A stretch of DNA of 64,000 nucleotides from positions 7,832-71,831 of the forward strand of contig CAISEZ010000045.1 in the NCBI GenBank assembly GCA_903884535.1, in the 5' to 3' direction. The translations under genes and the position numbers were made by a program. The notes below the pieces were generated by a model. That model did not search any database and was not told where the DNA came from. It was given only the letters and a program-made list of their open reading frames with translations. Positions 1-58,772 of this stretch are shown here, piece after piece. The stretch's first letter is position 1. Every line of letters begins with the position of its first letter. The stretch comes from an uncultured Verrucomicrobia subdivision 3 bacterium. GTDB lineage: Bacteria > Verrucomicrobiota > Verrucomicrobiia > Limisphaerales > UBA11358.

Positions 1-1
1 C

Positions 2-19717: not shown

Positions 19718-21862
19718 TCAGGGCGAACGGATCATGTAAAACTCCAACGGCTCGTTGGTCGGCGCTTGAGCGTCAATAAATTGATATTGTCCGGCCAGGA
19801 TTTCAGTCACCGGGCCGAGCACCTGCCAACTGGTTCGGGGCAGGGCCGGGTTGGTTGTCCCCAACATTTCAAAACTGGCTCCCGGCGTATTGGTGAACGT
19901 GCATTGAAAATTTCCGTTGGAGTTTATCAGCGAGGAATTAATCATCGGCGTTGTGATCGACGTCGTGCTGACCGTAAAATCACTGGTATTGGTGCCACCC
20001 ACACTATTGGTCACCAGCGCCTGAAAATGATAGGTCGTAGCTGGCAGCAAACCGCTGATCAGATTGGTCACCGCAACCGAATTGGTCCCAGCCTGAATCA
20101 CATTGGTGCCGGAAAAGTTGCCGTAGCCAGTGGATGTGCCGAAAGCATAATAACACTGGGCAATGGCCCCGCCGGGATTCACGGTCCCCACCAGCGCAAT
20201 GCTATTCGGAAGGCGGGTGCTGGAACCAGATTGCAGGGCATAGGTCGGTGGCGAATTGCTGCTAACCGGAGTGACCCATTCAGCCGCGCCGCGGTCTGGC
20301 TGACCGACGTTGGGCACCAGATTGCCGAAGAAATCCAAGCCGCCAGCATTGGTATTGCCAGTCATGGCCGTGGTAACCAACAAACCAGAATCAATGCATG
20401 GCGACCCGGCCTGGAGCAGGTAGCCGCCCAAGGTGCTCATGTTGGTGGTGCCGCCCACGCCGCCGCCGGTGCCGGGGGCAACCAGCAGCGGATTGCTGGT
20501 TAACTTATTGGCGTCGGATGGTTCACCAGAAACATGCTGACCATAAAACAAGTTGTAATTAAATGTTCGCGTATTGCCGCTGGTAAAGTTCCAACTGGCA
20601 GTGCTGCTCAAATTATAGAACACATTATTATAAACATAATAACTATGACCTGTGGCCCGGTCGTCAAAAAAGACCGGCGAAAGATTGGACGGTGTATAAA
20701 TGGTGTTGTTGTAAATGTAATCACTGGCGGTGGTGCCCCCGTCTCCGCTCAGTCCGAAGATGTCGCCTTGGTCATTCTGGCTAATGTTGTAACGGACGAC
20801 AATGTGCGTATCGTTACCAACCGCATTGCCGGCGGTGTCCGCCGAGGCGTATTGGACAAATAATCCCCAACTGTTGTCGTGGCTGTAACTGAATTGCCAG
20901 ACAGTCTGGGGACTCCGTAAATCTGCATCATAGAGGCTTCCATCATGCAGGCCGTCACCGTTGTTGTGATAACCCTCGTTATACTGGAAGACTGCACCGC
21001 GCGAACTATAGCTGCAGATTTGATTGCCGTCTGTAGTGTTAGCAGTGTCATGCATCAAATTGTGCTCGACTACGCATGATGCGTCCGCGTAGCGGATACT
21101 CATGGCGTTTTTGCAAATGTCGCTGATGACATTATTGCGGATATGCAAATTGGAACAGTAATGAGTATTCCAGGCGGACGTGCCGGGGTAATCGCTCGTG
21201 GAACTCCGGTTGGCACAGGCGACAATACCTTGATTCGTCACTGATAGGATTGTGCAGTTCTGAATGGTAATATCGTTGAAACGAGTTGCGGTGCCGGACT
21301 CGCTGGTGACCTCGACCACAATGCCGCCGGTGCGCTTGGCTACCAAGTCGCCATTGGAGGTGTCCACGCGGCCGCAAATATTATGAACAAAGCAATTGCT
21401 GACATAAAGGTGGTTTACCACGCCAAAGTTGGCCGCCGCCAGATGAATGCCGCGACGCTCGGTGGAGGTGCCGGAACCGGGATTAATCACTTCCAGATTG
21501 CTGATTTCCCAATACTGCTGATTATTAAGTAGCACTGCATCAGTCGCGCCATTGCCGTTGATGAGTGGCCGGGAGGAATTCGTTCCGTAGGAACTCAATT
21601 TGATGGGATTGCCACTCGTGCCCGATCCCAACGGGCTTAACGTGCCTGTCCAACTGCTGCCATTCTTCAGCAAGAGAAAATCTCCCGGGGCGAAGGTCGT
21701 CCCGTTAATCTTGGCCAGACTAGACCATGCCGCGTTGGATGACGTGCCGCTGTTGGCGTCATTGCCGGCCACGGAATCGACATAATAAGTCGACGCCATT
21801 GCCGGCAGCACGGTCATGGCGATGATCAACCGCGCAAACCAAGCAAACATATTGTTCACCAT
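19718..21862 (-). CDS. Secreted right-handed beta-helix (pectin-lyase-fold) protein with Fn3-like and C-terminal module
   Basis: TYYVDSVAGNDANSGTS..AW.SL, PGD.LLLK, QYNEGY.N, YSHDN, VRYNISQND, YNNTIY, LQAGSPCIDSG, DFFGN...PDRGAAE. Confidence 0.85.
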   Translation of the reverse strand: MVNNMFAWFARLIIAMTVLPAMASTYYVDSVAGNDANSGTSSNAAWSSLAKINGTTFAPGDFLLLKNGSSWTGTLSPLGSGTSGNPIKLSSYGTNSSRPLINGNGATDAVLLNNQQYWEISNLEVINPGSGTSTERRGIHLAAANFGVVNHLYVSNCFVHNICGRVDTSNGDLVAKRTGGIVVEVTSESGTATRFNDITIQNCTILSVTNQGIVACANRSSTSDYPGTSAWNTHYCSNLHIRNNVISDICKNAMSIRYADASCVVEHNLMHDTANTTDGNQICSYSSRGAVFQYNEGYHNNGDGLHDGSLYDADLRSPQTVWQFSYSHDNSWGLFVQYASADTAGNAVGNDTHIVVRYNISQNDQGDIFGLSGDGGTTASDYIYNNTIYTPSNLSPVFFDDRATGHSYYVYNNVFYNLSSTASWNFTSGNTRTFNYNLFYGQHVSGEPSDANKLTSNPLLVAPGTGGGVGGTTNMSTLGGYLLQAGSPCIDSGLLVTTAMTGNTNAGGLDFFGNLVPNVGQPDRGAAEWVTPVSSNSPPTYALQSGSSTRLPNSIALVGTVNPGGAIAQCYYAFGTSTGYGNFSGTNVIQAGTNSVAVTNLISGLLPATTYHFQALVTNSVGGTNTSDFTVSTTSITTPMINSSLINSNGNFQCTFTNTPGASFEMLGTTNPALPRTSWQVLGPVTEILAGQYQFIDAQAPTNEPLEFYMIRSP

Positions 21863-21901
21863 AGCATTGTTTCAAAGTGACCGGCGGATTTTTTTACAAA
21901 A

Positions 21902-21935
21902 TATCCGGGTGGCCAAGGACATGACCACCCGGATA
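21902..21935 (-). terminator. Stem-loop between the two large secreted-protein genes (terminator or processing hairpin)
   Basis: TATCCGGGTGG...CCACCCGGATA inverted repeat; on the minus strand followed by TTTTGT. Confidence 0.55.
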
Positions 21936-21957
21936 ATTCACCCAACCCAAAACTAGT

Positions 21958-24321
21958 TCAGAACGGAAAACTCACGCTCGGGGCAGTGCCGGTTTCTTTG
22001 ATCTGATAGAACTCGGTCTGACCGGTTTGGCCAGTGATTGCGGCGGAGTAATTGCCACCGCCAAGATCCGTGATGGTCACACCCGAAGCGACTTGCGAGT
22101 AGGTTCCGTTAACCAAGGCGGAACTCCAAACTTGCTGATTGGCCGACTGCCCGGCTCCGGCTGTGTCGGTATAGCTGATGGTGACCGTGTTTCCAGACTT
22201 GATGATACCAGTAATGGTTGGGAACGGTTTGTTGACAACTTTCACCGCTGCGCTCTGAATGAGAATGTTGCCCATGCCAGCATTCTGTCGCAAGACCAGA
22301 TAATTGACATTTGCAAGATTGGTCACAGCCACGTCTTGAAGTGTAACTCTCGTGCCAGTGGAGCTACTTTGGTTAATCCAAAGTGTGCTGACGCCAGAAT
22401 CAACATCATAGCTTACAACGATATTGTCAGGCGTTGAGTTGGGGATCACTCCGCTCGTATTGTAGTTGGGTATCGTCTCCGAGTATGAGGTGTTGATGCT
22501 AGGACTATTCGTGCCGTTATACAAGGCCAGATAGAATAGTCCGTCGTTGGTGGTCGTGTTGGCAGCGTTGGTGATTGTGCATACTTGAGCCATCGCCACG
22601 CCGGTTGAGGAACCATCCGCTGCAAACTCCACAAATCCACCGGTGGAATTGCCAGGATATGCGGCGTTCGCTCCATACAGTGATACGTCAGCCCACGTGG
22701 CAAGGACACTGGCATAAAGCACTTTATGACTACCAGCGGTATAGGGCGCGCCGGCGAGTCGCATCTGATTTTGGTTGCCGCTCGCCGTGCCGCGGATCAA
22801 TGGAACACCGACCGGAACGACTCCGCCACTGGAAGGTGTCAGCGTTGTGATCAAATTCACCGATCCGCTCACAGTGCGTGAAGCCCAAATTCCGCCGGAA
22901 ACGTTCACCAAGTCAGAATGCCCGCTGCTCGAGGAATATGAAGTAGAAGGTTGGTAATGCATCATATCGCATAGCGCATAACTACTGTCAGGCAAAACCA
23001 TCACGGCCAGTTTCAATGTGTTTGTGAGAGCGTTGGCAGGATCGATTACATTCAAGGTGACGATGCCAACTCCGCTACCTATCGCGTTAATGGTGATGGT
23101 GCAATTATTCGTGTTGGGCGCGATGCCGGTGGTTGAAGTGAAGGAAAGACTGCTTAAATTTGTGGTCAGTGGATTGCCATTTCCATCCAAGGCCACCACC
23201 GCGCCGGTGACCACCAAGCTTGATGCCGCAACATTTGTGTCAACGATTTGGAATGGAATCGTGATGGCACCAGCCCCGATCCGGTTAGTAGGCGGAATAT
23301 AGTTGACATTGGTTCCGCTGAGAACATACGGCAATGAGATGAATGGTGGGACTGTCAGTTGGAACGATGATGACGCACTATTTCCCGAGCTATCAGTGAC
23401 GCTCACTGTGACGGTGACCGAAGCCGTGGTTCCTGGCGCAAGATTATTAAGCGGTGTAAATGAAAGTGTGCGAGTGCCACCCGAGCCGGCAACAATGTTG
23501 GAGGTAGTCAGGGTGACATTGGTATTTCCCAACGAGATTGTGATATTGGTCAATGTGGCGGCCGGATCCAGTGGATCGCCCACCGTGAACGGAATTAATC
23601 CGGAACTCACGGTCGATTTCACGGTCAGGTTGCCAAACGCTGTAATTGTCGGCGGCAACGTTCCTGGTGTCAACGGTTGAAAGGTCGCGGCAGGCGGTGT
23701 GACGGTGCTGGCCATAGCAAATCGGGCTCCGTTGGCCGTGGTTCCCGTTGAAACGTCATTGGTGGCGGTCAAAACCAATACCACTTGATTATTGATGAGA
23801 TATTGTCCCCACGGTGGAGGCACTGTGACTCCCGAGCTACCGGTGCCGCCGTTGTCAATGAAGTCGGTCACCAAACTAGCCGTGTTGGGGCCCGTGGTTA
23901 GCAGATCGTTGGCCGTAGAAACCGTGTTGTTGGCTTGCGCGGAGGACCAGATCAGGCTTGGATTATTGGTCGTGAAACTAGGATAGGCCTGGTTCAAGGC
24001 CCAAACCAGCACATGGGTGTAGCCATTGTTGGCGTTTGCCGATGGCAGGCTGATCTTCAAGCCGTAATTGGTGTTGGGATTCTGGCCGGTGAAATCAAAC
24101 TTGAAATAACTTTTGCACGGTGTGGTTGCGCTGTATTTGACTTTGTCATAACCCGATACATAATTGGTAAATCCGGTGCCAGCGGTGGCTGAATATTGGA
24201 TGGTCGAGTCCGTGATTGCATTGGTGACGACGGTGGCATTTTGAGCAGATGCTGCCACGGTGCCGGCAGCCAAGGCTAGACCTGTGAATGAAACGACCCG
24301 GCGGAATAGTGTGATTTTCAT
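21958..24321 (-). CDS. Large secreted Thr/Ser/Asn-rich modular protein of unknown function
   Basis: Signal peptide ending ASA-Q; N-terminal YFKFDF/WALNQ domain, cadherin/Ig-like middle, beta-sandwich domain, C-terminal EFYQI module. Confidence 0.85.
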   Translation of the reverse strand: MKITLFRRVVSFTGLALAAGTVAASAQNATVVTNAITDSTIQYSATAGTGFTNYVSGYDKVKYSATTPCKSYFKFDFTGQNPNTNYGLKISLPSANANNGYTHVLVWALNQAYPSFTTNNPSLIWSSAQANNTVSTANDLLTTGPNTASLVTDFIDNGGTGSSGVTVPPPWGQYLINNQVVLVLTATNDVSTGTTANGARFAMASTVTPPAATFQPLTPGTLPPTITAFGNLTVKSTVSSGLIPFTVGDPLDPAATLTNITISLGNTNVTLTTSNIVAGSGGTRTLSFTPLNNLAPGTTASVTVTVSVTDSSGNSASSSFQLTVPPFISLPYVLSGTNVNYIPPTNRIGAGAITIPFQIVDTNVAASSLVVTGAVVALDGNGNPLTTNLSSLSFTSTTGIAPNTNNCTITINAIGSGVGIVTLNVIDPANALTNTLKLAVMVLPDSSYALCDMMHYQPSTSYSSSSGHSDLVNVSGGIWASRTVSGSVNLITTLTPSSGGVVPVGVPLIRGTASGNQNQMRLAGAPYTAGSHKVLYASVLATWADVSLYGANAAYPGNSTGGFVEFAADGSSTGVAMAQVCTITNAANTTTNDGLFYLALYNGTNSPSINTSYSETIPNYNTSGVIPNSTPDNIVVSYDVDSGVSTLWINQSSSTGTRVTLQDVAVTNLANVNYLVLRQNAGMGNILIQSAAVKVVNKPFPTITGIIKSGNTVTISYTDTAGAGQSANQQVWSSALVNGTYSQVASGVTITDLGGGNYSAAITGQTGQTEFYQIKETGTAPSVSFPF

Positions 24322-24354
24322 TTTGATTGGATGTTTTGAATTCAGTTCTGGCGA

Positions 24355-25134
24355 TTAGAATTGTTTGTTGGTCGGGACACTTTTCGCCCCCGCGTGACCA
24401 TCGAAATAGATGTGGTTTCGCAAGGTTCCATGGATGGGTTTGGGCGGCGTATTGGCCGACCAGGATGGTGTCTTGGTCGGATTGGAAGTGAACCCCTGTT
24501 GATCCAGATCCACCATAGCCCAGATTTCTGTCAGCGGCCCGACCGCACTGATGGCGTTCAATTTCAATGACGGTGCCGTGGAGGATGAGCCAATGTAAGA
24601 ACCGAATGGATTTTTCATCAATTGAGTGGCATTGGTCTCGGCAAACTCCCAATTATACATGCCATAATACTGGCGGTGCCAGATTTCGGTGGTCACCCCG
24701 GCAACCGCGGGTGGAGTGTAGCCGGAAACCGCGCCCGGACAGGTCATCACATTGATGATGTTGGTTTGGAGCGAAGGGGCAGGAAGTTGCAGGTAACTGT
24801 AGATATAATTCGGCAAGACACCACCAAGGTCGGTCAAAAATGTGCCATACCCGCCATACTGACCGAACAGCAATCCCCAATTCGGATTGCCCGGCGGCAA
24901 CCGGTCGCTGTTATCGTTGTTATACATTTGCAGAGCCAGTCCGTTTTGTTTGAAATTGCTCAGGCAGGAAATCTGTTGCGCTTTTTGTTTTGCCTTGGCC
25001 AGTGCCGGCAGCAGCATGGCGGCCAGAATGGCGATGATGGCGATCACCACCAGAAGTTCAATCAGGGTGAAGGCGTTGCGCGGGCGCGAGCAAAGGGGAT
25101 TGTCACTGGTTGAAATGAGAGATCGTGAATTCAT
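24355..25134 (-). CDS. Prepilin-type N-terminal cleavage/methylation protein with H-X9-DG C-terminal motif (DUF1559-like)
   Basis: [29 protein letters not shown]...CLSNFKQ; C-terminal [13 protein letters not shown]. Confidence 0.95.
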
Positions 25135-25167
25135 GTTTAAAATCTCGCATAAACTTGGGTGTCTATC

Positions 25168-25187
25168 TACAGAACATTTGTTCTGTA
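25168..25187. promoter_or_regulatory. Palindromic operator candidate TACAGAAC-ATTT-GTTCTGTA
   Basis: 8-bp perfect inverted repeat between the response regulator stop and the pilin-like gene start (core 35 nt upstream of ATG). Confidence 0.7.
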
Positions 25188-25208
25188 TGCCTCTTGACGG
25201 TGGCAGGC

Positions 25209-25847
25209 CTATTTCCGGCCGAGGAATTTGATGATCGCCTCGGAACGGGACTGAACATGCAACTTTTCATAAACCAGATGCACATGGCCACGCACGGTGT
25301 GCAGGCTGATGTGTAATTGATCGGCGATTTCCTTGTAAAGAAATCCCTTGGCAAGCAGCGAAAGAATTTCGAGTTCGCGCGGCGTCAACAGCTCGAATTC
25401 CGCCTCCGGTTTTTTGATTTCCTGAAAATGGCTGACGACTTTCCGGGCAATCTGCATGGACATCGGCGAGCCGCCGGCTTGAACCTGTTCCACCGCCTGA
25501 ATGATCTCGTCCGGATCGGTGTTCTTCATCAGGTAGCCGCTCGCGCCAGCCCGCAGGGATTCAAAAATGAGATCGCTGTTCTCGTAGGCCGTGAGCATGA
25601 GAATCTGGGTCTTGGGCAGGAGCGGCTTTAATTGCGCCGCACATTGCACGCCGCTGATGCCCGGCAGATTGATGTCCATCAGCACCACGTCCGGGGCGGT
25701 GGCGGGCAGGTCGCGCACCGCCTCTTCGCCGTTGGCAAAGGCGCCCACGCATTTTAAGCCCGGGCTGCGCTTTACCAGCTCCACGAGGTTTTCCCGCGTC
25801 CCGCGGACATCTTCAACTATGGCAATGGTAATGGCTGTTTTTTTCAT
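25209..25847 (-). CDS. NarL/LuxR-family response regulator
   Basis: Receiver ([20 protein letters not shown]) plus [12 protein letters not shown]...[14 protein letters not shown]...YEKLHV. Confidence 0.95.
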
Positions 25848-25888
25848 GGAGCAATGGGAACTGGACGAGTCTTAGCAGAATGGCTGCA

Positions 25889-28864
25889 TCAGGGCAATTT
25901 AAGTTCCACGCGAACGGTGGTTCCGGTTCCCGGCAAGCTCTCGATGGTGCACCGACCGCCGAGATCGGCCACGCGCTGCTGCATGTTCCGTAATCCATCC
26001 GCATGGCTGTTGGGTGTGGTGGACGAAAACCCCCGGCCATTATCAATCAATGCCAGGCGCAATAGATTTTCGTCCAGCCGGGCGACCATGGATATTTCCG
26101 TCGCGCCGGAATGTTTCACCGCGTTAGTCAATGCTTCCTTGATCACCATAAACAATCCGTGCCGGATATCGGCGGGCAATTCGCGGGCGGAAATTTTCTC
26201 CGGATAATCAATCCGGCAGCGGATGCCGGCCGGATTCAAAAAGTCCACGGCATATTGTCCGGCGTAATCCAGCAACTGGCTCAAGGTGTCATTGCGCGGG
26301 GTTACTGCCCAGACGATTTCATCCACGGACTTCACGCCCTCGCGGGCCAAACTGGTCATTTTTTCCACGTGCGCGATCGCTTTGGCCGGCTCGGCCAAGT
26401 CATGCTGGGTTAATTTTCCGAGCAGCGAAATCTGCGTGAGGCTGGCGCCCAACTCATCGTGCAGATCCTTGGCGATGCGTGCCCGTTCCTTCTGCATGAA
26501 CGTTTCCTGCTCCAGTTTTTTCAGGCGTGCCCGGAATCGGCGGTAGGCGATGTATCGCACGGTGATGGTCACCAAGGTGAGGAGCAGCAACAATCCGGAC
26601 AACCGGAACCAAACCGTCTGCCAAATAAACGGATTGACCGTGAAAGCTAGCGTTGCCCCGGTTTCATTCCACATGCCCGCACTGTTGCAGGCGATCACTT
26701 GGAAAACATAATCTCCGGCCGGCAGCCGCGTGAAGTTGGCGCTGCGCTGCGCTCGCGGCACGTTGACCCAGTTGTCGTCCCACCCTATCAACCGATATCG
26801 GAAGGCAATGTTTTCCGGCGCGATGAAACTCAACGCGGTGAATTCGATCTCAATTTTCCGGTGACCGGGCGGCAGGATCGCCCCGGCGCCATGCCGTAAC
26901 CCGATCGGTTGGCTATCCACCAATATCCGTTCGATGGTCACCGGTGGCACGAGATGGTTGGGGGTGAATTGGTTGGGATTGATCACCACGAGCCCCGACC
27001 GGGTGGGAAACCAGATGCGGCCGTCGGTGCTACGCGTGTTGCCCGGCGCAAAGCCATAGTTGCCTTGCAGGTTGGGCAGGGATTCATCGCGACCGTAAAG
27101 CACGGAACGCACGTTTTCTAATTTACCATCAAGCGCGTCTGCCAACTCTTGTTGGCGAACCTGAAAAATGCCGTGGTCGGAACTGAACCAAAAACCGCCA
27201 CCGTCGTCGGTGGTCATGGCGCAAATGTAGGCGTCGTGCAGGCCGCGACTGGTGCTCAGGCTGGAAAATTTCCCATTGTGAATCCGGCCGACGCCCGCGC
27301 CGGCATAGCCAATCCATAAATCCCCTTTCGGATCGGTGTAAAGACAGCGGATAGGTTTGGCGCGGAACAAGGTTCCTGGCGTCGCGTCAACCAATTGTCC
27401 GTGGTCCACCCGGAGCAAAAAACCATCCACCGTTCCCAGCCAGATGGTTCCGGCTTTGTCCTGGGCGATGGCGCGCACCGTGCGCGTGCCGGTGGGCGGA
27501 GTTAGCGTTTGAAAATGACCGTCGTGATAGCATTGAACCAGGCTGGGCGATTCCATGGCGATCCATAAATTCCCCTCCCGATCGTTCAGCAAGCCGCGGA
27601 TATTGCCGCTGCCCAACCCGTCACCGCTGCCCAGCACGGTGACTTGGCCGTCCCGCCAATGCCGCAAACCGCCACGCGCGGTGCCCACCCAGATGCCATC
27701 CGCGCCATCGCTGGTCACGCACGTCGCCCGCGTCCCCGCCCAACCGCTTTCGCCGGAAACATTCCGCCAACTGCCGTTATCGCGCCGCGCCAGTTCACCG
27801 TTTTGCGCCGCTGCCCACAAGGTGCCGCTGGCGTCCTCGCACATCGATCGCACACTGGAAAACGGCAAGCCGCTTTCGGTGCTCTGCAATTCCATGATGC
27901 GCCGGCTTAACCGATTTAGACCGCCCCCGCCGGTGCCCGCCCAGAGATTGCCTTCCCGATCCTCCGTAATGTTTAGCGTATCCGGATAAGATGTCGGCAC
28001 GCTGGAAACATTGGTGCCAACGATGCGAAATAATCCGCCCACCAAGGTGCCCAGCCAAACGGTTCCCGAGTGATCCTCATAAATCGCCGACGGGGCAATG
28101 CCTGACAGAGTGGAGTTGATCGTCGCCACCGTTTCGGGAGCTTTGCCTTCCTCCACTTTCAGCAGTTGGGTGCCGACGTTGACCCAGATGCCTCCGGACC
28201 GCGCCGGAGCCAGCCGCACCGTGCCGTTCGGCAGATCGGCGACATAACTAAAATCATAATTCCGAAACAGACTCAACTGCCCCGCCTTCGCCAGCCAAAT
28301 CTGGCCTTGGTTATCACTGGTCAGCACGCACGGGCCAATTCCAGAAAGACCGGACCGCGCCGTGAACTTGGTGACTTTCCCGGAATCAATCCGGCAGGCG
28401 GATCCATCCGCATAACCGATCCAAACTGCGCCGTCACGCGCTTGGGCCAGGGCGAGCGGGCGGAAATTGGGCAACCCATTGGCGGTGGTGAAAACATTCG
28501 TGCGGCTCGCGGTCAGTGACATAACCGTGCCGCCCTCCAGCGCCAACCACAGTTCGTCGTTGCGGCCTAGCATCATCAAGCGGATGAGCGGCCGCGTGCG
28601 TTGCGACGGGGTTGGTAACTCAATTTCCCGAAACCGGACGCCATCAAACAGGGCTAACCCACCCTGCGTCGCCACCCAGAGATAGCCTTCGGCATTCTGG
28701 GCGATACTGGTTACGTCATTGTCCGGCAGGCCGTCGTCGGTTTGCCAGGAACGCACAAACCAGGGCGACGAATCGGCCGCCGGAATCATGCCGGGAAGGA
28801 ACAGTGCAAGAACCAGATTCCAACGCACGACCAGAAGCCAGAGGGCGGTGTGGCGGGAAATCAT
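25889..28864 (-). CDS. Sensor histidine kinase with periplasmic beta-propeller and Y_Y_Y domain, HisKA_3-type
   Basis: WQTDDGLP..V..IAQ..EGYLW.AT..GL..FDG, repeated D..G.LW.GT blades, FRYRL.GWD...LPAGDYVFQV, TM, ERARIAKDLHDELGA, DNGRGF, GL.NM..R. Confidence 0.95.
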   Translation of the reverse strand: MISRHTALWLLVVRWNLVLALFLPGMIPAADSSPWFVRSWQTDDGLPDNDVTSIAQNAEGYLWVATQGGLALFDGVRFREIELPTPSQRTRPLIRLMMLGRNDELWLALEGGTVMSLTASRTNVFTTANGLPNFRPLALAQARDGAVWIGYADGSACRIDSGKVTKFTARSGLSGIGPCVLTSDNQGQIWLAKAGQLSLFRNYDFSYVADLPNGTVRLAPARSGGIWVNVGTQLLKVEEGKAPETVATINSTLSGIAPSAIYEDHSGTVWLGTLVGGLFRIVGTNVSSVPTSYPDTLNITEDREGNLWAGTGGGGLNRLSRRIMELQSTESGLPFSSVRSMCEDASGTLWAAAQNGELARRDNGSWRNVSGESGWAGTRATCVTSDGADGIWVGTARGGLRHWRDGQVTVLGSGDGLGSGNIRGLLNDREGNLWIAMESPSLVQCYHDGHFQTLTPPTGTRTVRAIAQDKAGTIWLGTVDGFLLRVDHGQLVDATPGTLFRAKPIRCLYTDPKGDLWIGYAGAGVGRIHNGKFSSLSTSRGLHDAYICAMTTDDGGGFWFSSDHGIFQVRQQELADALDGKLENVRSVLYGRDESLPNLQGNYGFAPGNTRSTDGRIWFPTRSGLVVINPNQFTPNHLVPPVTIERILVDSQPIGLRHGAGAILPPGHRKIEIEFTALSFIAPENIAFRYRLIGWDDNWVNVPRAQRSANFTRLPAGDYVFQVIACNSAGMWNETGATLAFTVNPFIWQTVWFRLSGLLLLLTLVTITVRYIAYRRFRARLKKLEQETFMQKERARIAKDLHDELGASLTQISLLGKLTQHDLAEPAKAIAHVEKMTSLAREGVKSVDEIVWAVTPRNDTLSQLLDYAGQYAVDFLNPAGIRCRIDYPEKISARELPADIRHGLFMVIKEALTNAVKHSGATEISMVARLDENLLRLALIDNGRGFSSTTPNSHADGLRNMQQRVADLGGRCTIESLPGTGTTVRVELKLP

Positions 28865-30185
28865 GGCGTGAAATTATACCGTCAAATAAATGATTCAAGT
28901 TTTGTTTTGCCACTCTGCACGGAACATTTGTTGGGGTAAGAAATAATGATCTGAGCGTGGTTTTGCTTAAAAATTGTCGGTCGACAGGGGAGCGCGGCCA
29001 GGTTGTGAAGGCGCTTACGAAATTGGTTGGCATAACAGTTGCTAGACGTCGAAAGGGCCATAAATTTGTCCGGGCTGGGTCAGATTCGCTCATCAAACCT
29101 CGTGTTAACAGATGAATGTCAGGCAGGCGGCGACACTGTAAAAACAGGATTATTTGACTGCAGTCGTCCACTCAGCTTGAAATTTTAGCCGTCATGAATT
29201 ATTAGTTTTAGAATTTTTAAATATGAGATTTTCAGTAGCAAAACGGGACAGCGACTCCGGTGGTTGCCAGTTTTCGCAAATCTGCTGGCTGCTGACGTGG
29301 TTTTGCTTCGGCGTGCTAGTCAATCAGCCGATTCAGGCTGCGCCCTTGATGGAAGAAGGGTTTAATTATCCCCTTGGCAGTGGTCTGGCGACGAATGCCC
29401 CGTGGTCCGGCAGCAACGGTTTATCGGTGGGCGTGGTGAGCGGCAATCTGACCGTCACCAATTTGCGTGGCACGGTGCCGACCGGAAATATGTTGCAGAT
29501 CAGCGGGGGCACCAACCGCACAGTCTATCGGAATTTCAGCAACACAGCGGTAACTGGCGGCGCGGTCTATTGCTCGGCGCTGATCCGCTGTCTGCAGCCA
29601 CCCACCAATTCCCAATTCATCGCGAGTTTGTTGCCGGCGGGAGGAAAATCTCACAGTTCTGGCTCCGACCCGATTGCGTTGAGTGTCAATCCTGCCGGGA
29701 ATGGCTTCACCTATAGCCTGACCAGCGTAGGCGGCGATTCAACGAGCGGTGGTGGGACGATGGCGACAAACACCACGCATCTTATCGTCCTGAAATATGC
29801 CTTTGTTTCCCGAGGTGTGGCCACCCTGTATGTGGATCCGACACCCGGTGGAGCGGAGCCGGCCTCTCCAGCAATTACTGCTGACACTGGCGATAATGTC
29901 GCTGCCAACCTGCAAGTTCTGTTACTTCAATCCGCCGCCAGCACCGCTCAAGGGACTTTTAACCTGGACTCTATTCGCGTGGGCACCAACTGGGCTGACG
30001 TGACTCCGATGACTATTCCCTTGTCCGTGACCGGACCGCAGAATCAGGCAGTGTGTTTTGGCAGCAGCGCCAGCTTCAGTGTTCAGGCTGCCGGCACGCC
30101 ACCGTTCAGCTATCTCTGGCGCACTAACGGCATTGGCGTGGTCAAAGCCACCAACAGCGTCTTCACACTGAATAATCCCAGCGGC

Positions 30186-31598
30186 CTAGCAGCCCGTTAA
30201 AGAATGTCGGTTTTTCCAAAAACTGCGGATGGAATGAATACCACGAACTGCCATAACCGTTACCAGGAAAAGCATCCCTGGAGCCAACAACCAGTGGAGT
30301 TGCCAATCCGTTTTACGGCGAGTCATGACGGCTATCAGCGTCCATACCGCCCAAAGTGTCAAAAACAAGCCCGCCGTCCCCGTTTTCGCGCTCCGCGGCT
30401 TGCACATTCCCCAAACTTTCCGCAGCAGCAGCCCCAAGTTATAGGCTGCGCACTTCAGCGTATGGGCTTTACTCACGTTGGTCTGACCACGCAACCAACT
30501 CCGCCGACCGCCGCCAGTCTCGCAGACATGGGCAAACGTTCGTTCGCAACGTTCGCTACGCCAGCGATTCAACTGTCGGCCCTTGTTCCCACGCACGCGC
30601 CGACGATTGGCCCGGAAGGCCGCTTCATATTCAGCGGGCTTGTTGGTCCAACGCCGGGTCTTTTGCCGCCGTTCAGGAATATAGGTTCGCACATCACGTT
30701 CCGCCAATTCCGCCAGCCAGCCATTGTCGTGATAACCCTTGTCCATCACCACTTCGGCAATTTCCGTTTCGCTGCCCGCCAGCACCATATTTGCTTCCGC
30801 CAGACTCAACGTGGCCGGCGCGCTCTGGGGATCGGATTTATCCGCGAAGGTGACCGTCGTCGCCACAATCGCTTCGCTCACCACGTCCACGGCATGTTCG
30901 GCCTTATACGCCAAATGCGTGCGCCCGTCCTTCAGCTTGGCAATCCGGCTGTCGGGATCGCTGGGGCTTTCCCATTGTTCATTCGAAACTTTCTTGTCCT
31001 TGCGGCCGCGATCCAACCGCCGCAGGTCGACCTCGGTCGGACTTTCAATGCCTGCCGCTTTGGCCAAGCCCTGCAAGTATTGTTTCCAGTCTTCCCCGCT
31101 GTCTTTGCGCACGATGCTTTTCATCGCCGCATTGGCCTCCAGCGTGGTTGCGTCAATCGCCACCGCCTTGCCGCGCAACAGTCCTTTCTGTTCCAGCATG
31201 CTCAATACAAAGACAAATACTTTATCGTAGACCGACTCGGGCAGACGCTGGCGGATCATGGTCATCGAAACATGCACGGGCGTTGCCTCCGTAATTGCAA
31301 AACCCAAAAAAGTCCGCAGGGCCAGACTGTCGGCGCAGCGCCAGGCGATGCCACGCTGGCTTTCCAAGCCTTCGAAGTAACCGATCAACAACATACGAAA
31401 GTAAACTCCCGGAGGAATACCTGGGCGGCCGCCTTCCTTGTAATAAGGGGTACAAAGATCTTCGACAAACCCGTCAAAACCAGCGGTCGCCAGAACCTCA
31501 TTGAGCTTGGCATAGAATGGATGGCCCGGACCAGTGGCCAACTCAGCCCGGGGGATGAACAGTTCGTCCTGTTTGGGTTTGCGCTTTCCAAGTGCCAT
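30186..31598 (-). CDS. DDE transposase
   Basis: GRPGIPP..YFRML.IGYFEG..S.R......DSLA.R.FLG (DUF772-like), AIDATT.EANA, DPDSRI, MDKGYH, R...ER.FA; TAG stop lies inside the target duplication. Confidence 0.93.
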   Translation of the reverse strand: MALGKRKPKQDELFIPRAELATGPGHPFYAKLNEVLATAGFDGFVEDLCTPYYKEGGRPGIPPGVYFRMLLIGYFEGLESQRGIAWRCADSLALRTFLGFAITEATPVHVSMTMIRQRLPESVYDKVFVFVLSMLEQKGLLRGKAVAIDATTLEANAAMKSIVRKDSGEDWKQYLQGLAKAAGIESPTEVDLRRLDRGRKDKKVSNEQWESPSDPDSRIAKLKDGRTHLAYKAEHAVDVVSEAIVATTVTFADKSDPQSAPATLSLAEANMVLAGSETEIAEVVMDKGYHDNGWLAELAERDVRTYIPERRQKTRRWTNKPAEYEAAFRANRRRVRGNKGRQLNRWRSERCERTFAHVCETGGGRRSWLRGQTNVSKAHTLKCAAYNLGLLLRKVWGMCKPRSAKTGTAGLFLTLWAVWTLIAVMTRRKTDWQLHWLLAPGMLFLVTVMAVRGIHSIRSFWKNRHSLTGC

Positions 31599-31660
31599 GC
31601 GCTTTCAGACCATTTTCCGAGTCAGTCGGTAACAGTTTTTCTGACTTTTTTAACGGGCTG
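30190..31660 (-). mobile_element. Insertion sequence (IS1182/IS5-like), 1471 bp, 4-bp CTAG target duplication
   Basis: Ends CAGCCCGTTAAA...TTTAACGGGCTG (12-bp perfect IR, extends imperfectly), flanked by CTAG at 30186-30189 and 31661-31664; single transposase. Confidence 0.93.
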
Positions 31661-32017
31661 CTAGATGCGTTAAAAAATTATGATGTGGTCGTCAACGACG
31701 CCTTCGGTTCCGTCACCAGCAGCGTTGCGAATCTCACTTTCAGCACGAATGCCGCCGCCATTGTCAACCAGCCATCAAGTCAGTTGGTTCCTCCCGGCGC
31801 TTCCAGCGTGACGTTCAATGTGACAACCGCCGGAGACGCGCCGTTGAGTTTTCAGTGGCGCACGAATGGGGTCGCCATTCCCGGTGCCACGAACACCAGT
31901 TATACCGTCGCCAACCCCGGTCCCGCCGATGCGGCGAATGCGATTGATTTTGTGGTGGCCAATCCGTGCGCCACCGTCACCAGCATGCCGCCGGTAAATG
32001 TGATTTTCCTGAATCAG

Positions 32018-32743
32018 TTCCTCGCCGGTTATGATGCCGGGCCGGGTTTTTTCAGCGGTGAAGACTTGATGCTGACCAATACCAGTGGTGCCAACCTCTA
32101 TGTCTGGTCCTCGCCAGACCTGACTGTTCCGGTGCTCAACTGGACTTTCGAGGGACAGATGTCCGAGCAGGTGTTCAACAACACCAGTGGCACCAGCCTT
32201 TATAGCATAAATGTCAATCCGGCCACTTCGCCGGTCTATTACTTCTTTGCCAAAACCAATGCCGGGCCTTACATGCCGAACGAGCCGATTGCCTCTGTTG
32301 CCACGGCGGACTATGTCAATTTTACTGTGGCGGATTCAATTGTTTCCATGAGTCCGTCTGGCCTGCTGGATCAGATTAACTTCCTGCCCGCTTATGACGC
32401 CGGCCCCGGATTTTTCAGCGGTGAAGATTTGACGCTGACCAATGCCAGCGGGGTCAGTTTGTTTGTCTGGTCGTCACCGGATCCATCTATGTCGGTGACC
32501 AACTGGACTCTGGAAGGCCAAATGTCCGAACAAGTCTTTAATAACAACAGCGGCACCAGCCTTTATTCCATCAACGTGAATCCAGCCACCTCGCCAATCT
32601 ATTATATTTTCGCCCAAACCAACAATGGGATATTCACAAGCAAGGAATCGGTGGTATGGCTGACGACCGTTGACTACCTCAACTTCACGGTGACGGGGAC
32701 CAGTGCTCCCATCACCACCAATGGAATATTCATATTCGCCAAC
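32018..32743 (+). repeat. Tandem intragenic duplication, 363-bp (121-aa) period
   Basis: FL..YDAGPGFFSGEDL.LTN.SG..L.VWSSPD....NWT.EGQMSEQVFNN.SGTSLYSINVNPATSP.YY.FA starts at 32018 and again at 32381. Confidence 0.9.
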
Positions 32744-34062
32744 CCGCCCAGCATCACCCAGTCCCCTCAAAGTCAGACGTTGCTGGCCGGACAAAACGCC
32801 AGCCTTAATTTGACCGCCACTGGTGCTGGACTGGGTTACCAATGGTTTTTCAATAACAATGGTTTGGTCGGGGCCGCCGCACCGGTGCTCGGCTTGATCA
32901 ATTTATCCGCCACCAACTCGGGAGCCTATTTTGTAATAGTCTCAAATTCCAGCGGGTCGGTCACGAGTAGTATCGCGACAATTACCGTCGCTTCGCCGCC
33001 AGTCCTAAGGGCAAGCTATAACCGATCCAATGGTGTTCAGTTGACTGCAAACACTATCACCAATCTGATTTATGCCGTGCAGTCCGCCACAAATCTGGCT
33101 CAACCGGTGTGGTTAACTCTACTGACAAACAACACCGGATTGAGTGGTCTGATTAACTTCCAAACCAACTCGACGGGCAATCCGCGGCAATTTTACCGGC
33201 TGTTTTTCCCCTCGGCCTTTCCGTTGCCGCCCCAGATCATTCTGCCACCCCAGAGCCAGACGGTTTTGGCCGGCCAAAGTCGTAGCCTCAGCGTGTCTGC
33301 CAACGACACTGGGGCCAGTTACCAATGGTTTTTTAACAACAACGCCATCGCTGGTGCCACCAACCGGATATTGAGTATGGCCGGTATTTCGGCCGCCAAT
33401 GTCGGAACGTATGCCGTAATCGTCACCAATGCTTTGGGTTCAATCACCAGCAGTATTGCGACACTTAACGTGGCTTCGCCGCCGATTATTAAGTTAGTTG
33501 CCGGCCCGCTGGGAACCATTCAATTGAAAGCTAATTCCATCACCGGGCTGACGTATGTGGTGCAGATGTCAACAAACCTGTTTAATTCTCGCTGGTTATC
33601 CATTCTGACCAACTCCACGGATGCTACCGGACTGGTGAATTTCCAAACCAATGCGGCGGCGCTAAAATCGGGCTTTTACCGGCTGTCATTTCCGTAGCTG
33701 AATTACTGGAACGCTTTGGGGTAAAATGGGTGCTTGTTCCTTGAACCATTTCCATTCCCTCCTATTGGACAATGTCAATTATTCATAATGTAAGCGGGCA
33801 CAATGAGATCAGAATGCGTAGAGGAAGTAGTGGGGCGTGGGTTTGAAGATTACAAATTATTAATCTACCACCGTCGGTGCTACTAGGGACGGCAGATATC
33901 ACATCGTTGTGGATAGCATTGAAATAAATGAGGTTTCGTCGTTTGCCCCGCTAGTCGCAGGCAGAACGTTTGTCGGGGTTGTTGGTTTCGAATAGTGATC
34001 TACTATGGCCAAAACATCCAAACACTATGCCTTCAAATCATCACGTTACTTGGCCCTCCATT

Positions 34063-37000
34063 ATGACCCGGCTCAACTTGAGTATGGGGTTAAAAGTTTT
34101 GTTAGTTTCCCTCGGCGGACTGGCCGGACATGTAATGGGCTAGTCTTATGTTGCCGGTGGCCCGCCCAATGATGCGATTGCGGCGACTTATTTTCCATAT
34201 CATTGGACGCTCACCACCACCAAGACGTATAGCACAGCCAGTTCGGCCTGCGTTGGCGACATCTATGTGCCTGATTATACCGGCAAGCCGGTTCCAGCCA
34301 ATAGCACCAGTCGGCCGGCGGTGGTGGTGGTGCATGGCGGCGGCGGCACCAGCGGCAGCCGGGCCTCCACCCGTGAACAGCAGATCAGCGAGTTTTGCGC
34401 CTCACATGGCTATGTGGCTTTCAACATAGATTATCCGTTGGGTGCGGTTTATCCTAAGAATATCCAGTCCTGGCGCACGGCGGTGCGCTATTTGCGGGCG
34501 AATGCAGCGACTTATGGCATTGATGTCAATCACATCGGCATCACGGGTGGATCCTTCGGCGGCTATTGCAGCGGTTTCATGAGCGGCATCACCAACGGTC
34601 AGCACACCCTGGAAGCAGATAGCAATGCCCAATACAATAATGCTTCCCTGGATTTGGACAGTGCAAATGAACTCTCGACCTACTCCGGAAATATTCAGTG
34701 CGCCATTGATCTTTACGGTCCCATGAATCAGGTGACTTCCGGCAATGCGGCCGGCCAATATAGCAGTCCGACCACGGCGACTCTTTACAATTCTTCACCG
34801 GTTAATTATGTCCATGTTGGGTCAGCTCCGATTTTGATTGCTCACGGCACGGCGGACACGACAGTTTCTATTTCCAACAGTTATGACATGACTAATGCCT
34901 GCGCCAGGATTGGAGTGCCCTATCAATTTTGTGTGATTCAGGGCGCGCAGCATACGTTTTATTATTACCAGACCAGCGGTGGTTCATGGCCGCCGGGCAA
35001 CTCCGCGCTCGACATGCGCCAGACTGCTTTCGACTGGTTCGATAAATGGCTACTCACGGCCAACAATCCACCGAGCATCACCGCACAACCTGCCGATGCC
35101 ACCGGCTGTCCGGGCACGCCGATGACGTTCAGCGTGGCTGCCACGGGAACCACGCCTTTCTACTACCAATGGTATGGACCCAGTGGCCTGATTTTGGGCG
35201 CGACCAGCAGCAGTTACACGATTGCCAGCCTGACGACCGGGAATGCGGGCGGTTATTCCGTGACGGTCTCCAACGCGGTCGGTGTCGCCACTAGCCGGAC
35301 GGCAGCTTTGTCTGTTCCCAACTTGACGGCACCTGTTGTCACCATCCAGCCGACCAACCAGACCGCGGGATTGGGTAGCCCGGTCAGCCTTGTGTCGGTC
35401 GCGACCGGTTCCGCGCTCCAATATCAGTGGATGGAAAATAACAATGTCCTGCCCAACGCCACGAATGCCACTTACAGCATCGCCAGTGCCGGCAGCAGCG
35501 ATGGGGGTGTCTATCAAGTCGCTGTTTACAATGGCTGCGGCACGGCGCTCAGTTCGAACGCCACGTTGACGGTGAATGCCCCGCCTTACATCACGGCCCA
35601 GCCTAATACCAATGACACGGTATGTAGCGGTGAAACCGCTACTTTTTTCGCGTCAGCATCAGGCGTCGGCCCGCTGGCGTATAAGTGGTTTGGCCCGTCT
35701 GCGCAGATTGTCGGTGCCCCGACGACCAATTTGCTGACCCTGACCAATCTGACGGCGGCGGATTCGGGCAGCTATTATCTGGTGGTCACCAATAGTTATG
35801 GCGCGGTCACCAGCAGCATCATTGCGTTGACGGTGAGTGTGAATACGGATGTCACGTTCTTAAACCAGCCGACCAATACGGAAGTCGCGGCGGGTGGCAC
35901 GGCAACTTTCAGTTTTACCTTGACGCCTGGCACGGGCACTGGTCTCACCTATCAGTGGTTTAAGGGCGACTACGACCCGATCCCCTTTGCGGTTTCCACC
36001 ACCAATGCCACGCTGGTGCTGACTAATGTGCTCGCGGCCTACGACCAGACGTTTTATCACTGCCTGGTGCAGAACAGTTGCAGCGCCGTGCAAAGTGCGG
36101 ACGTCACCTTGACGGTGGATTCGGCGCCGGTCATTACCCAGCAGCCGCAGGCTCAAGCCACCGTCTCCGGCGGCAGCGCCAGTTTTGCCGTGCAAGTCAG
36201 TGGCACGGCGCCGTTGAGCTACCAATGGTCCGGGCCCAGCGGCTTGATTTCTGGGGCGACCAATCAAACCTTCACGCTTTCCAATGTCAGCACGAACAAC
36301 GCGGGCAACTATTCGGTGACCATTACGAATCAGTTTGGAACGGTGACCAGTTCCAACGCCGCCTTGACGGTTACGGCCGGTAGTTTTTATCTGGCGGAAT
36401 CTTTTAATTATGCCTCCGGGCAGCAGTTGGCCAACAATTCGCCTTGGACTTCTCACAATGTGCCAAATACCACCGGCATGGCAATTGTGAGCGGCGGTCT
36501 GACCTATCCCGGACTGGCGGATTTTTCGCCAGCCGGAAACGATTTGCAGATTACCCCCATTTCCGGCCAGACGAACAGCTACCGGCCGTTTGATAACAAG
36601 GCCACCAACGGAACGGTCTATGTTTCCATGCTGGCGGATTGTTCCGCGCCGGTCGGCAGCTCGGGATACTATACTTTTGGTTTGCTGCCGAGCAGCACGA
36701 CAACTCCCGGTGGCCGCACCACGGATCCGGTGCTGTTACAGGTTAAGACCAATACCACGGGCGGATATTTGATGGCCGTCGGAACAGCCAATGCGGCGGC
36801 GGCCGTCTATGCCACCAATATTTTGTCGCTCAATACCACCAATTTGATCGTTCTGAAATATGATATGGGCAGCAAGATTGCGAGCCTGTATTTGAATCCA
36901 GTGGTTGGCTCGCCAGAACCGGGCACCCCGTCCGCAACGGCCACTGGCACCATTGCCTTCAGTGATCTCAACTATGTGTATTTCCGCGGAGTGGCTGGCA

Positions 37001-39129
37001 GCGGCACCTGGACTTATGACACGATTCGCATTGCTTCGACCTGGAATAGTGTTTTGCCGCAAGGCACGCCGGCGACGACTGGGCCGTCTGTCACTCAGCA
37101 GCCCCAGCCGAAAGCCGTGACGGCCACGACCACCGCTAATTTTAGTGTCGGGGCCGCCGGCACGTCTCCGCTCTTTTATCAATGGCGTCGCGGTGGTGTG
37201 CCCATCAGTGGGGCCACCGGCAGCACCTATAGTCTCGCTGGCACTGCGGCGGGTGATTCCGGCAGCACATTTGATGTCGTTATCACCAATTATTACGGTT
37301 CCATCACCAGCCAGGTTGCGACGCTGACGGTTAATACTGTCACCACGCCCACGGAATTGTTGTCCATCGAAGCCGTCAAATCCGTTTACTATGTGCAAAC
37401 TAGTGCGGCCGGTCCGGTTTCGCCGGCCACGGGCGGATTCTCCTGGGCGGCGGAAGTGCAGGGGATTTTGCCGGCGCTCATCACCAGTGCCACCGTGGGT
37501 TTTAGCGGCACGAACCAGCCGAATCCCTTTGTGGAGCCGGCCATTGACAACACGGATTTGGCGCAGAATGAGTTGTTCTTTGATTCGAAATCCGCGCTGG
37601 ATGCTGCGTTCACCAATGGCAATTATCACTACGTGATTCAATTCACCAATGGCAACACCTATACCACGGATGTGCCGCTGCCCGTCACGGATAATTATCC
37701 CAATGCGCCCACCATCATCGCCCCGGCGGCCGACTGGTCGGCTTCCGGCCGGCTGGCCTTGCATCCGGTGAGCGGCGGCTACCGGTTGACTTGGAATTCC
37801 CTCTCGGCGCCGCAGGACCAGCAAACCCTTGGCATCACCGATCCGTTTGGCAATCTTACCGAATACACGTTGCCGGGCAGTGCCACCAATTTCCTCGTGC
37901 CCAATAGTCTGGTCCAGCCGGAGATGGATTATGATGTGGAACTCACCTTCACCCACATGAGTTATTTGAGCACCAATGGTGCGGGAACCATTCTCTACGG
38001 CTTGTTTGAATCGGACACTGATTTTTCTGTGCGGACTGATCCCGTGCAAACGAATGTGTTGGCGGCCTCCAGTTGGGCCACCGTGCGCGATGGCGCGAAC
38101 TTCAATGTGGATGTGGATGAGATCGCGAGCGGTTATGTGCTGGCCAAATACAGCACCAACGGCGCTTCCGGCAAGGGTTATTTCCAGTTTGACCTGACCG
38201 GACAGATTCCCGACACCAATTCGCCCGCGACCTTCAAGTTCGTGACGGCGGCCACTTCGGGCCAGCAAAACCTCACGCTTTGGGCGTTGAACCAAGGCTA
38301 TCCCAATATGAATAATCATCTCATTTGGGCCACGGCTCAGGCCAATGACACTAACTCCGAGAATATGCTGACCAGCGGTGCGTTGACTGCCACTGCCATC
38401 ACCAACGTGTTTCTGTCGGGCGGGCCGGGGACAAATCAATTCACGCTGCCGGCGGCGTGGGGTCAGTTCATCCAAAACAACGCCCTGATTTTGGTGTTCA
38501 CCACGACGGCGCCGGGTGCCCAGACCAACAGCAGCGCCGGTTACCGCATTGCGGTGAACAGTGCCGCCACTGTCCCCACGCTCACTTATTCAACGATCCA
38601 GCCGCCGGTTGCCACGACGTTGGCGGCGACGGGAGTTACCGCCGGTTCGGCCACTTTGAATGGCACCGTCAATCCCAGCGGAGCCGCCACGGCCTGGTAT
38701 TTTCAATATGGCACCACCACAAACTACGGCAGCGTGACCGCCACCAACAATCTGACGGCGGGCACGACCGCCGTGGGTGTCAACAGCGGGTTGAGCGGTT
38801 TGAGCGCCGGCACGGTGTATCATTACCAATTGGTGGCCGCCAACAGTGGGGGCTCCGGTAGCGGTGGCGATGCCACCTTCAGCACGCGCACCGTGACCGC
38901 ACCGCAGTTGGTTTCGCCGCAGGTTTCGGCCAGCAATGGCGCGCAATTCTCCTTCGCGGGGACACCCGGCGCGACGTTCACCATTTTGGGCAGCACGAAT
39001 ATCGCCCTGCCGCTTTCCAGTTGGACGGTCTTGGGCGTGGCCACAGAAAACCCCGCCGGCCAGTATAACTTTGCCGACCCGCAGGCGACGAATAATCTGC
39101 AGCGATTCTACCGGGTGCGGTCGCCGTAA
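34063..39129 (+). pseudogene. Giant secreted esterase-Ig multidomain protein (~1688 codons) with in-frame TAG at 34141-34143
   Basis: Frame upstream of track ORF 34267 continues: MTRLNLSMGLKVLLVSLGGLAGHVMG*SYVAGGPP...CVGDIYVPDY; then esterase (VHGGG, GGSFGG, HGTADTTV, GAQHTF), about six Ig domains, beta-sandwich modules, Fn3-like, C-terminal FYRVRSP. Confidence 0.85.
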
Positions 39130-58685: not shown

Positions 58686-58772
58686 GAATGGAACTAGCAG
58701 TCGCCGAAATAATGCCGGAACAACAGCCCCGTTCAGCGCGACTGCCGCAGGTGCAACTCCGGTGATTTTTTT

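Follow-up and report, generated by a model that had tools for sequence, protein, structure and literature searches.

We analysed a 64,000-nucleotide stretch of contig CAISEZ010000045.1 (positions 7,832 to 71,831; hereafter the window, in whose own numbering coordinates are given) from a freshwater Verrucomicrobium with a genome of 3.9 Mb in 165 contigs and a completeness of 93.6%. Several genes in the window, most of them for putatively exported proteins, end in a similar sequence of about 70 residues. This element, here called the FYR module after its conserved Phe-Tyr-Arg positions, is a C-terminal domain absent from Pfam and NCBIfam. Four clear window copies were aligned and converted into a hidden Markov model (HMM), which was iterated five times on the six-frame open reading frames (ORFs) of at least 60 amino acids (aa) of the genome; the final model has 60 positions. 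A scan of every stop-to-stop frame of the window, in all six frames, returned five significant copies and no sixth among these frames, the next best match having an E-value of 0.24. The copies and the proteins that carry them, together with a divergent relative, are as follows.

19721..19960, minus strand: C-terminal 80 aa of P0001, a beta-helix protein (gene 19718-21862); HMM score 56.5 bits
19730-19915, minus strand: HMM match of the module in P0001 (aa 650-711 of 714), ending 3 aa before the stop
33032..33202, plus strand: internal module copy of P0005 (aa 481-537; ORF 31592-33697); 58.9 bits
33512..33685, plus strand: C-terminal module copy of P0005 (aa 641-698 of 701); 57.4 bits, ending 3 aa before the stop
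38887..39126, plus strand: C-terminal 80 aa of P0003, an esterase-Ig protein (ORF 34267-39129, 5'-truncated); 67.7 bits
38938-39117, plus strand: HMM match of the module in P0003 (aa 1558-1617 of 1620); 67.7 bits
59342..59467, plus strand: module remnant of 42 codons, matching model positions 19-60; 34.5 bits, E-value 1e-9
21994..22221, minus strand: divergent relative of the module in P0002 (787 aa; gene 21958-24321), from an orthologue-profile comparison

The original prediction, made from the DNA alone, was that five different exported proteins share this C-terminal module. That description holds for P0001, P0003, P0005 (with two copies) and the remnant, but P0002 carries only a divergent relative. 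The internal copy of P0005 has the tail FYRLFFP and is followed by a proline-rich linker and an Ig domain. The remnant ends a decayed Ig-repeat gene, of which frameshifted Ig-like fragments can be found in several frames upstream (58713-59081), and the region 58713-59470 as a whole belongs, in decayed form, to the same class of Ig-repeat proteins. The cargo had also been described as different in each protein, and genome-wide it is very diverse, but P0001 and P0003 share a two-domain cassette, consisting of a fibronectin type III (FN3)-like domain and the module, with 47% identity over their last 161 residues. Signal peptides on all four intact genes had been claimed as well, and here the prediction fails for P0003, which has none. 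Similarity to a paralogue (genome contig C31:8788-12693) extends upstream of the P0003 ORF, into the interval 33698-34266, to about position 34156, and because an in-frame stop cuts this upstream homology, the 5' end with its signal peptide has been lost. P0003 may be a pseudogene.

The tail of P0002 was not matched by the module HMM, even with filters off and at E-values up to 10, and a profile comparison from its single sequence gave a probability of 0.8%. When a profile of eight orthologues was compared with the module profile A1, an alignment of 72 terminal 80-residue sequences of the genome, 69 columns were aligned with an hhalign probability of 93.2% and an E-value of 3e-7. The alignment of the orthologue profile to the module therefore identifies the P0002 tail as a divergent relative, which lacks the conserved W and the TNL hallmark. 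An additional 12-residue tail ending in FPF follows the divergent module in P0002 (window 21958-21993) and is conserved in its orthologues (P0276-P0283); it was seen on no other module protein of the genome.

Position, cargo and spread of the module

Across the genome, the HMM identified 76 module copies in 74 ORFs. With a module profile that is biased to terminal matches, 72 of the 76 copies end 2-17 aa before a stop codon, compared with 2.5 expected under uniform placement, and 64 of these terminal copies lie 3-5 aa from the stop (3 residues, n = 34; 4 residues, n = 17; 5 residues, n = 13). The copies are highly divergent, with a mean column identity of 22%, and follow the consensus ..G..G..Y.[VLI][QL].S-T-N-L....W..[LVI].T......G.F.F.D......R-F-Y-R-[LVI]-x-x-P. 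The W is kept in 73 of the 76 copies and the FYR positions in 57-63 of them; the last residue is proline in 45 of the 72 terminal copies, and, counted from the F of FYR, 42 of 70 readable tails are exactly seven residues long. Most module proteins of this genome have a single copy. Four copies are internal: those of P0005 and C22_10245 occur alongside a terminal copy, and in L034 and L041 the sole copy is internal, in a layout of signal peptide, N-domain, module, Ig and pectate lyase. The position is C-terminal in 30 other genomes of the phylum, too: in all 40 of the high-scoring matches considered there, the stop follows 0-7 codons after the match; these matches were hand-picked from a ranked list obtained with a terminal-copy profile, both of which favour terminal copies.

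Signal-peptide-like N-termini were called with a crude home-made heuristic, not a trained predictor, whose background rate is 26-40%. They were found in 60 of 70 module ORFs with an intact 5' end and in 884 of 2233 background ORFs (Fisher p = 5e-15), or in 40 of 70 and 586 of 2233, respectively, when only the first start codon was considered. Most of the module ORFs that failed the heuristic look 5'-truncated. Pfam searches of all 74 proteins showed that the cargo includes polysaccharide lyases (PL1, PL4, PL6, PL7, PL8, and PL11), GH25, pectinesterase, PhoD and other phosphoesterases and phosphatases, sedolisin-type proteases, a multicopper oxidase, and one protein of the endonuclease/exonuclease/phosphatase family. 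Non-enzyme cargo comprises NHL, RCC1, and FG-GAP propellers, LamG, PA14, and PATR repeat proteins. The smallest module protein, L065 (genome contig C75:450-905; 151 aa), consists of a signal peptide, about 50 glycine-rich residues (...IDWYKIAGGGGTSTGG...) that match nothing in Pfam, and a single module; its gene adjoins that of a 936-aa exported protein.

Within the phylum, 201 genomes from 104 genera were sampled; the A1 profile found matches in 78 of these genomes and 55 of these genera, and many genomes have at least 28 matches. The distribution is patchy by family: matches were found in 16/17, 5/5, and 7/7 genomes of families f4, f22, and f29, compared with 1/17, 0/32, and 0/17 genomes of families f6, f17, and f24. 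None of five genomes from outside the phylum matched. In Bacteroidota, 16 of 121 genomes gave matches, all of them marginal at 21-29 bits; about half of these fall in open frames longer than 3,000 aa, and one set consists of three spaced repeats in a single frame. The module was not found as a real family in the 121 genomes. Among 1.84 billion public cluster representatives, 71,480 match at E-values up to 1e-3 and 9,321 at E-values up to 1e-10. Their source names are those of Verrucomicrobiota and Limisphaerales metagenome-assembled genomes (MAGs), and the proteins are named "hypothetical" or "autotransporter-associated beta strand protein". Run over named genomes, a pattern scan with a single protein recovered the module at one of 13 loci, in a Verrucomicrobiae MAG; the remaining 12 loci, from six other groups, have the upstream FN3-like domain only.

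The best 150 of the 71,480 public clusters, a list biased towards multi-copy proteins because scores add up, contain 482 copies in 149 proteins, mostly as tandem arrays of two to eight with a period of 70-89 aa. In this set, 135 proteins end in a copy no more than 12 residues from the C-terminus, and 347 copies are internal; FYR is kept in 76% of the internal and 89% of the terminal copies, and the W in 99% of the internal ones. Inspected by eye, many of 55 shorter public proteins show a signal peptide followed by one FN3 domain and then by two to four modules, and the fn3 assignment was confirmed with Pfam in both proteins that were scanned. Three public proteins (P0024, P0072, and P0146) combine a signal peptide, a cohesin domain (PF00963; 31.6-47.2 bits, above the cut-off), and three tandem modules. 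By analogy, they look like anchoring scaffoldins in which the module array would occupy the place that SLH repeats fill in such proteins. Tandem arrays are typical of avidity-based anchors.

The terminal slot can also be compared on homologous cargo. A search with the beta-helix cargo of P0001 alone (residues 25-540) returned 1,180 homologues at E-values up to 1e-10. Among the 120 listed and examined, 45 terminate with the module, 42 continue for fewer than 60 aa beyond the helix, and 33 carry other extensions. Fifteen of the 120 were scanned with Pfam. P0364 ends in Por_Secre_tail (residues 639-709 of 717; 42.4 bits), the C-terminal domain (CTD) of the type IX secretion system (T9SS), and P0377, P0380, and P0393 end in FlgD_ig with Por_Secre_tail. 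Dockerin_1 ends P0347 (residues 784-834 of 839; a Phycisphaerae MAG by source name) and P0373 (residues 767-818 of 826). At the same terminal position, one and the same enzyme therefore bears the FYR module in Verrucomicrobiota and either of two established localisation modules in other lineages.

Fold and relation to known families

Each of the 72 sequences of A1 was scanned individually against Pfam and NCBIfam at E-values up to 1. No Pfam family matched more than two of the 72 modules (26 families matched, 25 of them listed), and no NCBIfam family matched more than one. Neither Por_Secre_tail (PF18962) nor fn3 (PF00041) is among the 25 listed Pfam families, and the fn3 hits within module proteins fall in domains other than the module. 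Matches in the ESM Atlas are to unnamed Verrucomicrobiota clusters only, and no paper on the domain was among those listed by full-text literature searches.

An AlphaFold2 model of the last 80 residues of P0003, computed with A1, has six strands (QLVSPQV, AQFSFA, TILGS, TVLGV, QYNFA, and FYRVR; pLDDT 89.6, pTM 0.77). Foldseek gave no match in the PDB at E-values up to 1e-3. An exhaustive structural alignment ranks FN3 domains first (3zk4_A with Z 7.2, a root-mean-square deviation of 3.1, and 75 aligned residues; 1tdq_A with Z 7.0), followed by the FN3 domains of titin and PTP-delta; the overall likeness, at Z 6-7.2, lies in the range that the alignment tool calls common folds. No T9SS CTD was among the 50 structural neighbours listed by either of two such structural alignment searches, which leaves a likeness of fold possible. 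Alignments to single FN3 chains (3mpc_B, 3..77 of 96; 1oww, 1..76 of 93; 8oty, 4..82 of 101; 7jgu, 2..74 of 90) end 16-19 residues short of the end of the FN3 chain, and the module therefore corresponds to strands A-B-C-C'-E-F without strand G. In the model of P0080, a public two-module protein (alignment A3; pLDDT 95.8, pTM 0.73), every complete module again shows six strands, and the linker from one F strand to the following A strand is only three residues long. Since both modules of P0080 have six strands, the six-stranded form is intrinsic and not an effect of the protein end. As modelled, the module is an autonomous six-stranded FN3-like beta-sandwich of about 70 residues, a predicted folded domain rather than a short signal, and because the F strand (...R-F-Y-R-x-x-x-P) is the last of the sandwich, the end of the protein coincides exactly with that of the domain.

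Comparison with named domains places the module near several of them and within none. Against FN3 (PF00041, E-set), which supplies the best structural neighbours (Z up to 7.2), the module has no PF00041 match and six strands in place of seven (A-B-C-C'-E-F-G), the G strand being missing in internal copies too. FN3 motifs have an order of conserved Y and W that is unlike that of the module. The comparison of the A1 profile with PDB sequences gave weak matches, the best being discoidin/CBM32-type DD domains of a Paenibacillus glucanase (2rv9, 4zxe; E-value 6e-7; residues 46-111 of 136), and sub-threshold partial matches to F5_F8_type_C recur in one or two of the 72 modules and also in public proteins. 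The module and the discoidin domain have in common the local motif Y-x-[IV]-Q-x-S-x(4-6)-W and the strands on either side of it. They differ in size and in fold assignment, and no full-length match exceeds the cut-off; the likeness is one of a local motif and does not amount to family membership.

The type A CTD of the T9SS (Por_Secre_tail, PF18962/TIGR04183; Bacteroidota) is likewise a small terminal beta-sandwich on dozens of unrelated exoproteins with signal peptides per genome. The module differs from it in lacking a sequence match (0 of 72), in having six strands, in its tandem arrays and sometimes internal position (347 of 482 copies in the best 150 public hits), and in belonging to Verrucomicrobiota, with no apparent real family in 121 Bacteroidota genomes. 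Type I dockerin and SLH modules resemble it in size (about 70 aa), in an almost invariably C-terminal place, and in occurring on many secreted polysaccharide degraders of one genome; dockerin takes the same slot, and public proteins combining cohesin with module arrays exist. The module is, however, all-beta and not a calcium-binding helical pair, the genome is without cohesin or dockerin, and the host is diderm. PEP-CTERM tags consist of a PEP motif, a transmembrane helix, and a basic tail, whereas neither the sequence properties nor the model of the module reveal a hydrophobic helix. In classical autotransporters the passenger is followed by a beta-barrel, whereas the PATR passengers here end in the module. 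The pectate lyases PelI and Pel3 of Dickeya and Pectobacterium also bear an FN3-like appendage on a secreted enzyme, with loops that are reported to take part in recognition by a secretion system (PMC7949064); their Fn3 domain is N-terminal and an isolated case, not a tag shared among proteins, and the likeness is at the level of fold only, tied with many FN3 domains.

Gene neighbourhood and candidate machinery

The gene that ends in P0005 is interrupted by an insertion sequence (IS), as had been proposed, and a run of co-directional minus-strand genes (21958-28864) comprises a histidine kinase, a response regulator, and an N_methyl protein, then P0002 and P0001. These features are listed below.

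29223..30185, plus strand: N-terminal part of the IS-split gene, with a signal-peptide-like start (P0005 is the C-terminal part)
30186..31664, minus strand: IS5/IS1182-like insertion sequence splitting the secreted Ig-repeat gene, from its terminal repeats and transposase
24355-25134, minus strand: prepilin-type or pilin-like N_methyl/DUF1559 protein
25209-25847, minus strand: LuxR-type response regulator
25889-28864, minus strand: beta-propeller-type sensor histidine kinase

The IS has 19-nucleotide inverted repeats (30186-30204 and 31646-31664) that are 95% complementary, and its 470-aa transposase contains DUF772 and DDE_Tnp_1 domains. We infer that the two reading frames of the split gene are in register once a single 4-bp CTAG target copy is included. 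The co-directional run may be a regulated operon of exported proteins. Elsewhere in the window, two giant hybrid histidine kinases (4528-9555 and 42278-46999; 1675 and 1573 aa) have six to eight PAS domains each.

Marker searches of the genome covered several secretion and attachment systems. SprA_N (PF14349) was unmatched in the genome, and 14 control genomes were equally silent; Por_Secre_tail was unmatched as well, with the controls silent too, although the model itself hits the public protein P0364 described above. The genome has no match to the autotransporter barrel (PF03797), which was matched in control genomes, and many of its PATR passenger-type proteins end in the module instead of a barrel. 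Nor did it match cohesin or Dockerin_1 (PF00404), searches that both found matches in the controls. Five secretin genes and two exosortase genes are present, together with 16 PEP-CTERM-like proteins found with a regular-expression scan, none of which bears the module. Two PEP-CTERM-like genes (C140:23503-24711 and C151:24935-25879) lie directly downstream of module genes. A secretin gene near a module gene on contig C13 was judged a chance adjacency, because an unrelated exonuclease gene lies between the two, and the search for Slam/SlipAM gave a sub-threshold match only.

The recurrent neighbours of module genes are only regulators, GFO/IDH oxidoreductases, carbohydrate-active enzymes, sulfatases, and pilin-like genes. 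Of these, the pilin-like DUF1559/N_methyl genes are the sole enriched class, about twofold (10 of 73 compared with 5.1 expected; p about 0.03). No homologous neighbours are shared by the genome's two FN3+module genes. On contig C120 (42349-54590), a gene for an FN3+Ig+module protein lies upstream of an apparent polysaccharide-synthesis cluster, recognised by eye from N-terminal sequences as sugar transferase-like, Wzc-like, and MBOAT-like; an exosortase gene can be found on the same contig (77816-78601).

Proposed function and alternative readings

The terminal position, the link with signal peptides, the diversity of the cargo, and the equivalence of the slot with those of known localisation modules argue for a role of the module in directing exported proteins to a particular place. 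Since nothing is left to space at the end of a protein, the terminal position also speaks against a mere spacer. Tandem arrays, internal copies that keep the hallmarks, and the combination of cohesin with a module array fit binding or anchoring better than a once-used, cleaved signal, and the evidence favours putative anchoring over export. We therefore tentatively propose, at somewhat less than an even chance, that the module is a putative surface-retention or addressing domain acting on the cell surface or within the matrix of the cell itself. Carrier proteins would first be exported through the Sec pathway, and the module would then hold unrelated enzymes and adhesin-like proteins on a common, postulated receptor. 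One copy would provide attachment and tandem copies would add avidity, as with dockerin, SLH, or GW anchoring modules.

Several observations weigh against surface retention. The array and cohesin arguments are borrowed from other organisms, because in this genome nearly every module protein has one copy and cohesin is absent, and the public list from which the arrays come favours multi-copy proteins. The profile, having been built from terminal copies, favours such copies. The module is about neutral in charge and has no obvious binding signature. No recurrent partner candidate was found among 346 clustered flanking genes, and DUF1559 was ruled out as a partner, since it is present in 31 of 32 genomes of f17 and 15 of 17 of f24, where the module occurs in none of 49, and is absent from all five genomes of f22, where the module occurs in all five. 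Neither a receptor nor a translocon candidate emerged from the neighbourhood and marker searches of the genome. Finally, a T9SS CTD in the same slot is compatible with export as much as with anchoring.

That last point leads to the possibility that the module is an export or sorting signal, read in the periplasm by an outer membrane translocation pathway (a new T9SS-like one or a secretin system) and perhaps then cleaved. The positional rule, the signal-peptide link, and the cargo diversity fit such a signal equally well, the T9SS CTD takes the same slot on homologous cargo, the genome has five secretin genes, and the patchy distribution in the phylum (78 of 201 genomes) is as expected of a lineage-specific system. 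PelI and Pel3 Fn3 domains are also among the structural neighbours of the module (3b8y_A, Z 6.4; 4u49_B, Z 6.2). In Pel3, loop regions are reported to form jointly a composite secretion signal of the type II secretion system, with Fn3 loop 3 reported as the key signal (PMC7949064). The Z scores of these structural neighbours are nevertheless within the common-fold range, and no machinery gene was found to travel with the module; SprA_N and Por_Secre_tail were unmatched in a genome whose controls were silent in both searches. Arrays and internal copies retain the hallmarks of terminal copies, and L034 and L041 (signal peptide, module, Ig, pectate lyase) have no terminal copy at all. The sorting tags known to us are single and terminal. 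We consider an export signal rather unlikely. A bolder form of the same idea joins export to attachment. Because strand G is missing, the F strand would form the edge of its sheet and be open to strand addition. The FYR module might thus be the cargo handle of a Verrucomicrobiota-specific outer membrane export-and-attachment pathway, a counterpart of the T9SS and its CTD, in which an envelope receptor captures the free F-strand edge by strand addition; this is an unlikely scenario on present evidence.

Two further readings dispense with a cellular address. As a carbohydrate-binding module (CBM), the domain would aim enzymes at environmental polysaccharide and not at the cell. The profile match to the discoidin/CBM32-type DD domain (E-value 6e-7), the recurring sub-threshold F5_F8_type_C matches, the presence of CBM56, CBM48, and CBM21 structures among the fold neighbours, and the many polysaccharide lyases among the cargo are consistent with this. 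CBMs are often terminal and sometimes tandem. The match, however, covers about half of the discoidin domain and all Pfam scores are below the cut-off, the C-terminal rule is far stricter than would generally be expected of CBMs, and proteases, phosphatases, a nuclease-family protein, a multicopper oxidase, and propellers share no substrate, which makes a CBM distinctly improbable. Alternatively, the module could be a passive end-cap or folding aid with no specific partner, spread through the phylum by domain shuffling. Its generic FN3-like fold (Z 6-7.2), the high divergence of the genome copies (22% mean column identity), and the existence of close homologues of the P0001 cargo that lack the module (42 of the 120 listed, with fewer than 60 aa after the helix) would agree with this, but an end-cap would hardly explain the exact C-terminus of 70 unrelated proteins and tens of thousands of clusters, or a near-invariant W (73 of 76 copies) and FYR (57-63 of 76), and we regard it as highly doubtful.

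Returning to surface retention, the original prediction of a tag for export or anchoring survives in part. Position, signal peptides, cargo, and the slot on homologues agree with such a tag, whereas the module is a repeatable, predicted folded domain with some internal-only copies and no translocon candidate found in the genome. Arrays of two to eight, internal copies that keep FYR and W, and two internal-only proteins do not fit a tag of the PEP-CTERM or T9SS type. The expected C-terminal bias and, by the crude heuristic, the co-occurrence with signal peptides were borne out; no characterised family in Pfam or NCBIfam was found to cover the module, and structure prediction yielded a folded six-stranded domain.

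In soil, freshwater, and marine habitats, Verrucomicrobiota are among the major degraders of complex polysaccharides, and the way in which they place their exoenzymes is, to our knowledge, not known. The domain described here marks about 74 putatively exported proteins of a single genome of 3.9 Mb, along with about 71,000 public clusters, and its position, like that of dockerins and T9SS CTDs, offers a concrete handle on exoenzyme placement. A family model would improve the annotation of thousands of proteins now named "hypothetical" or "autotransporter-associated". It would also delimit the probable surface or secreted proteome of these bacteria and direct experiments to the receptor or pathway.

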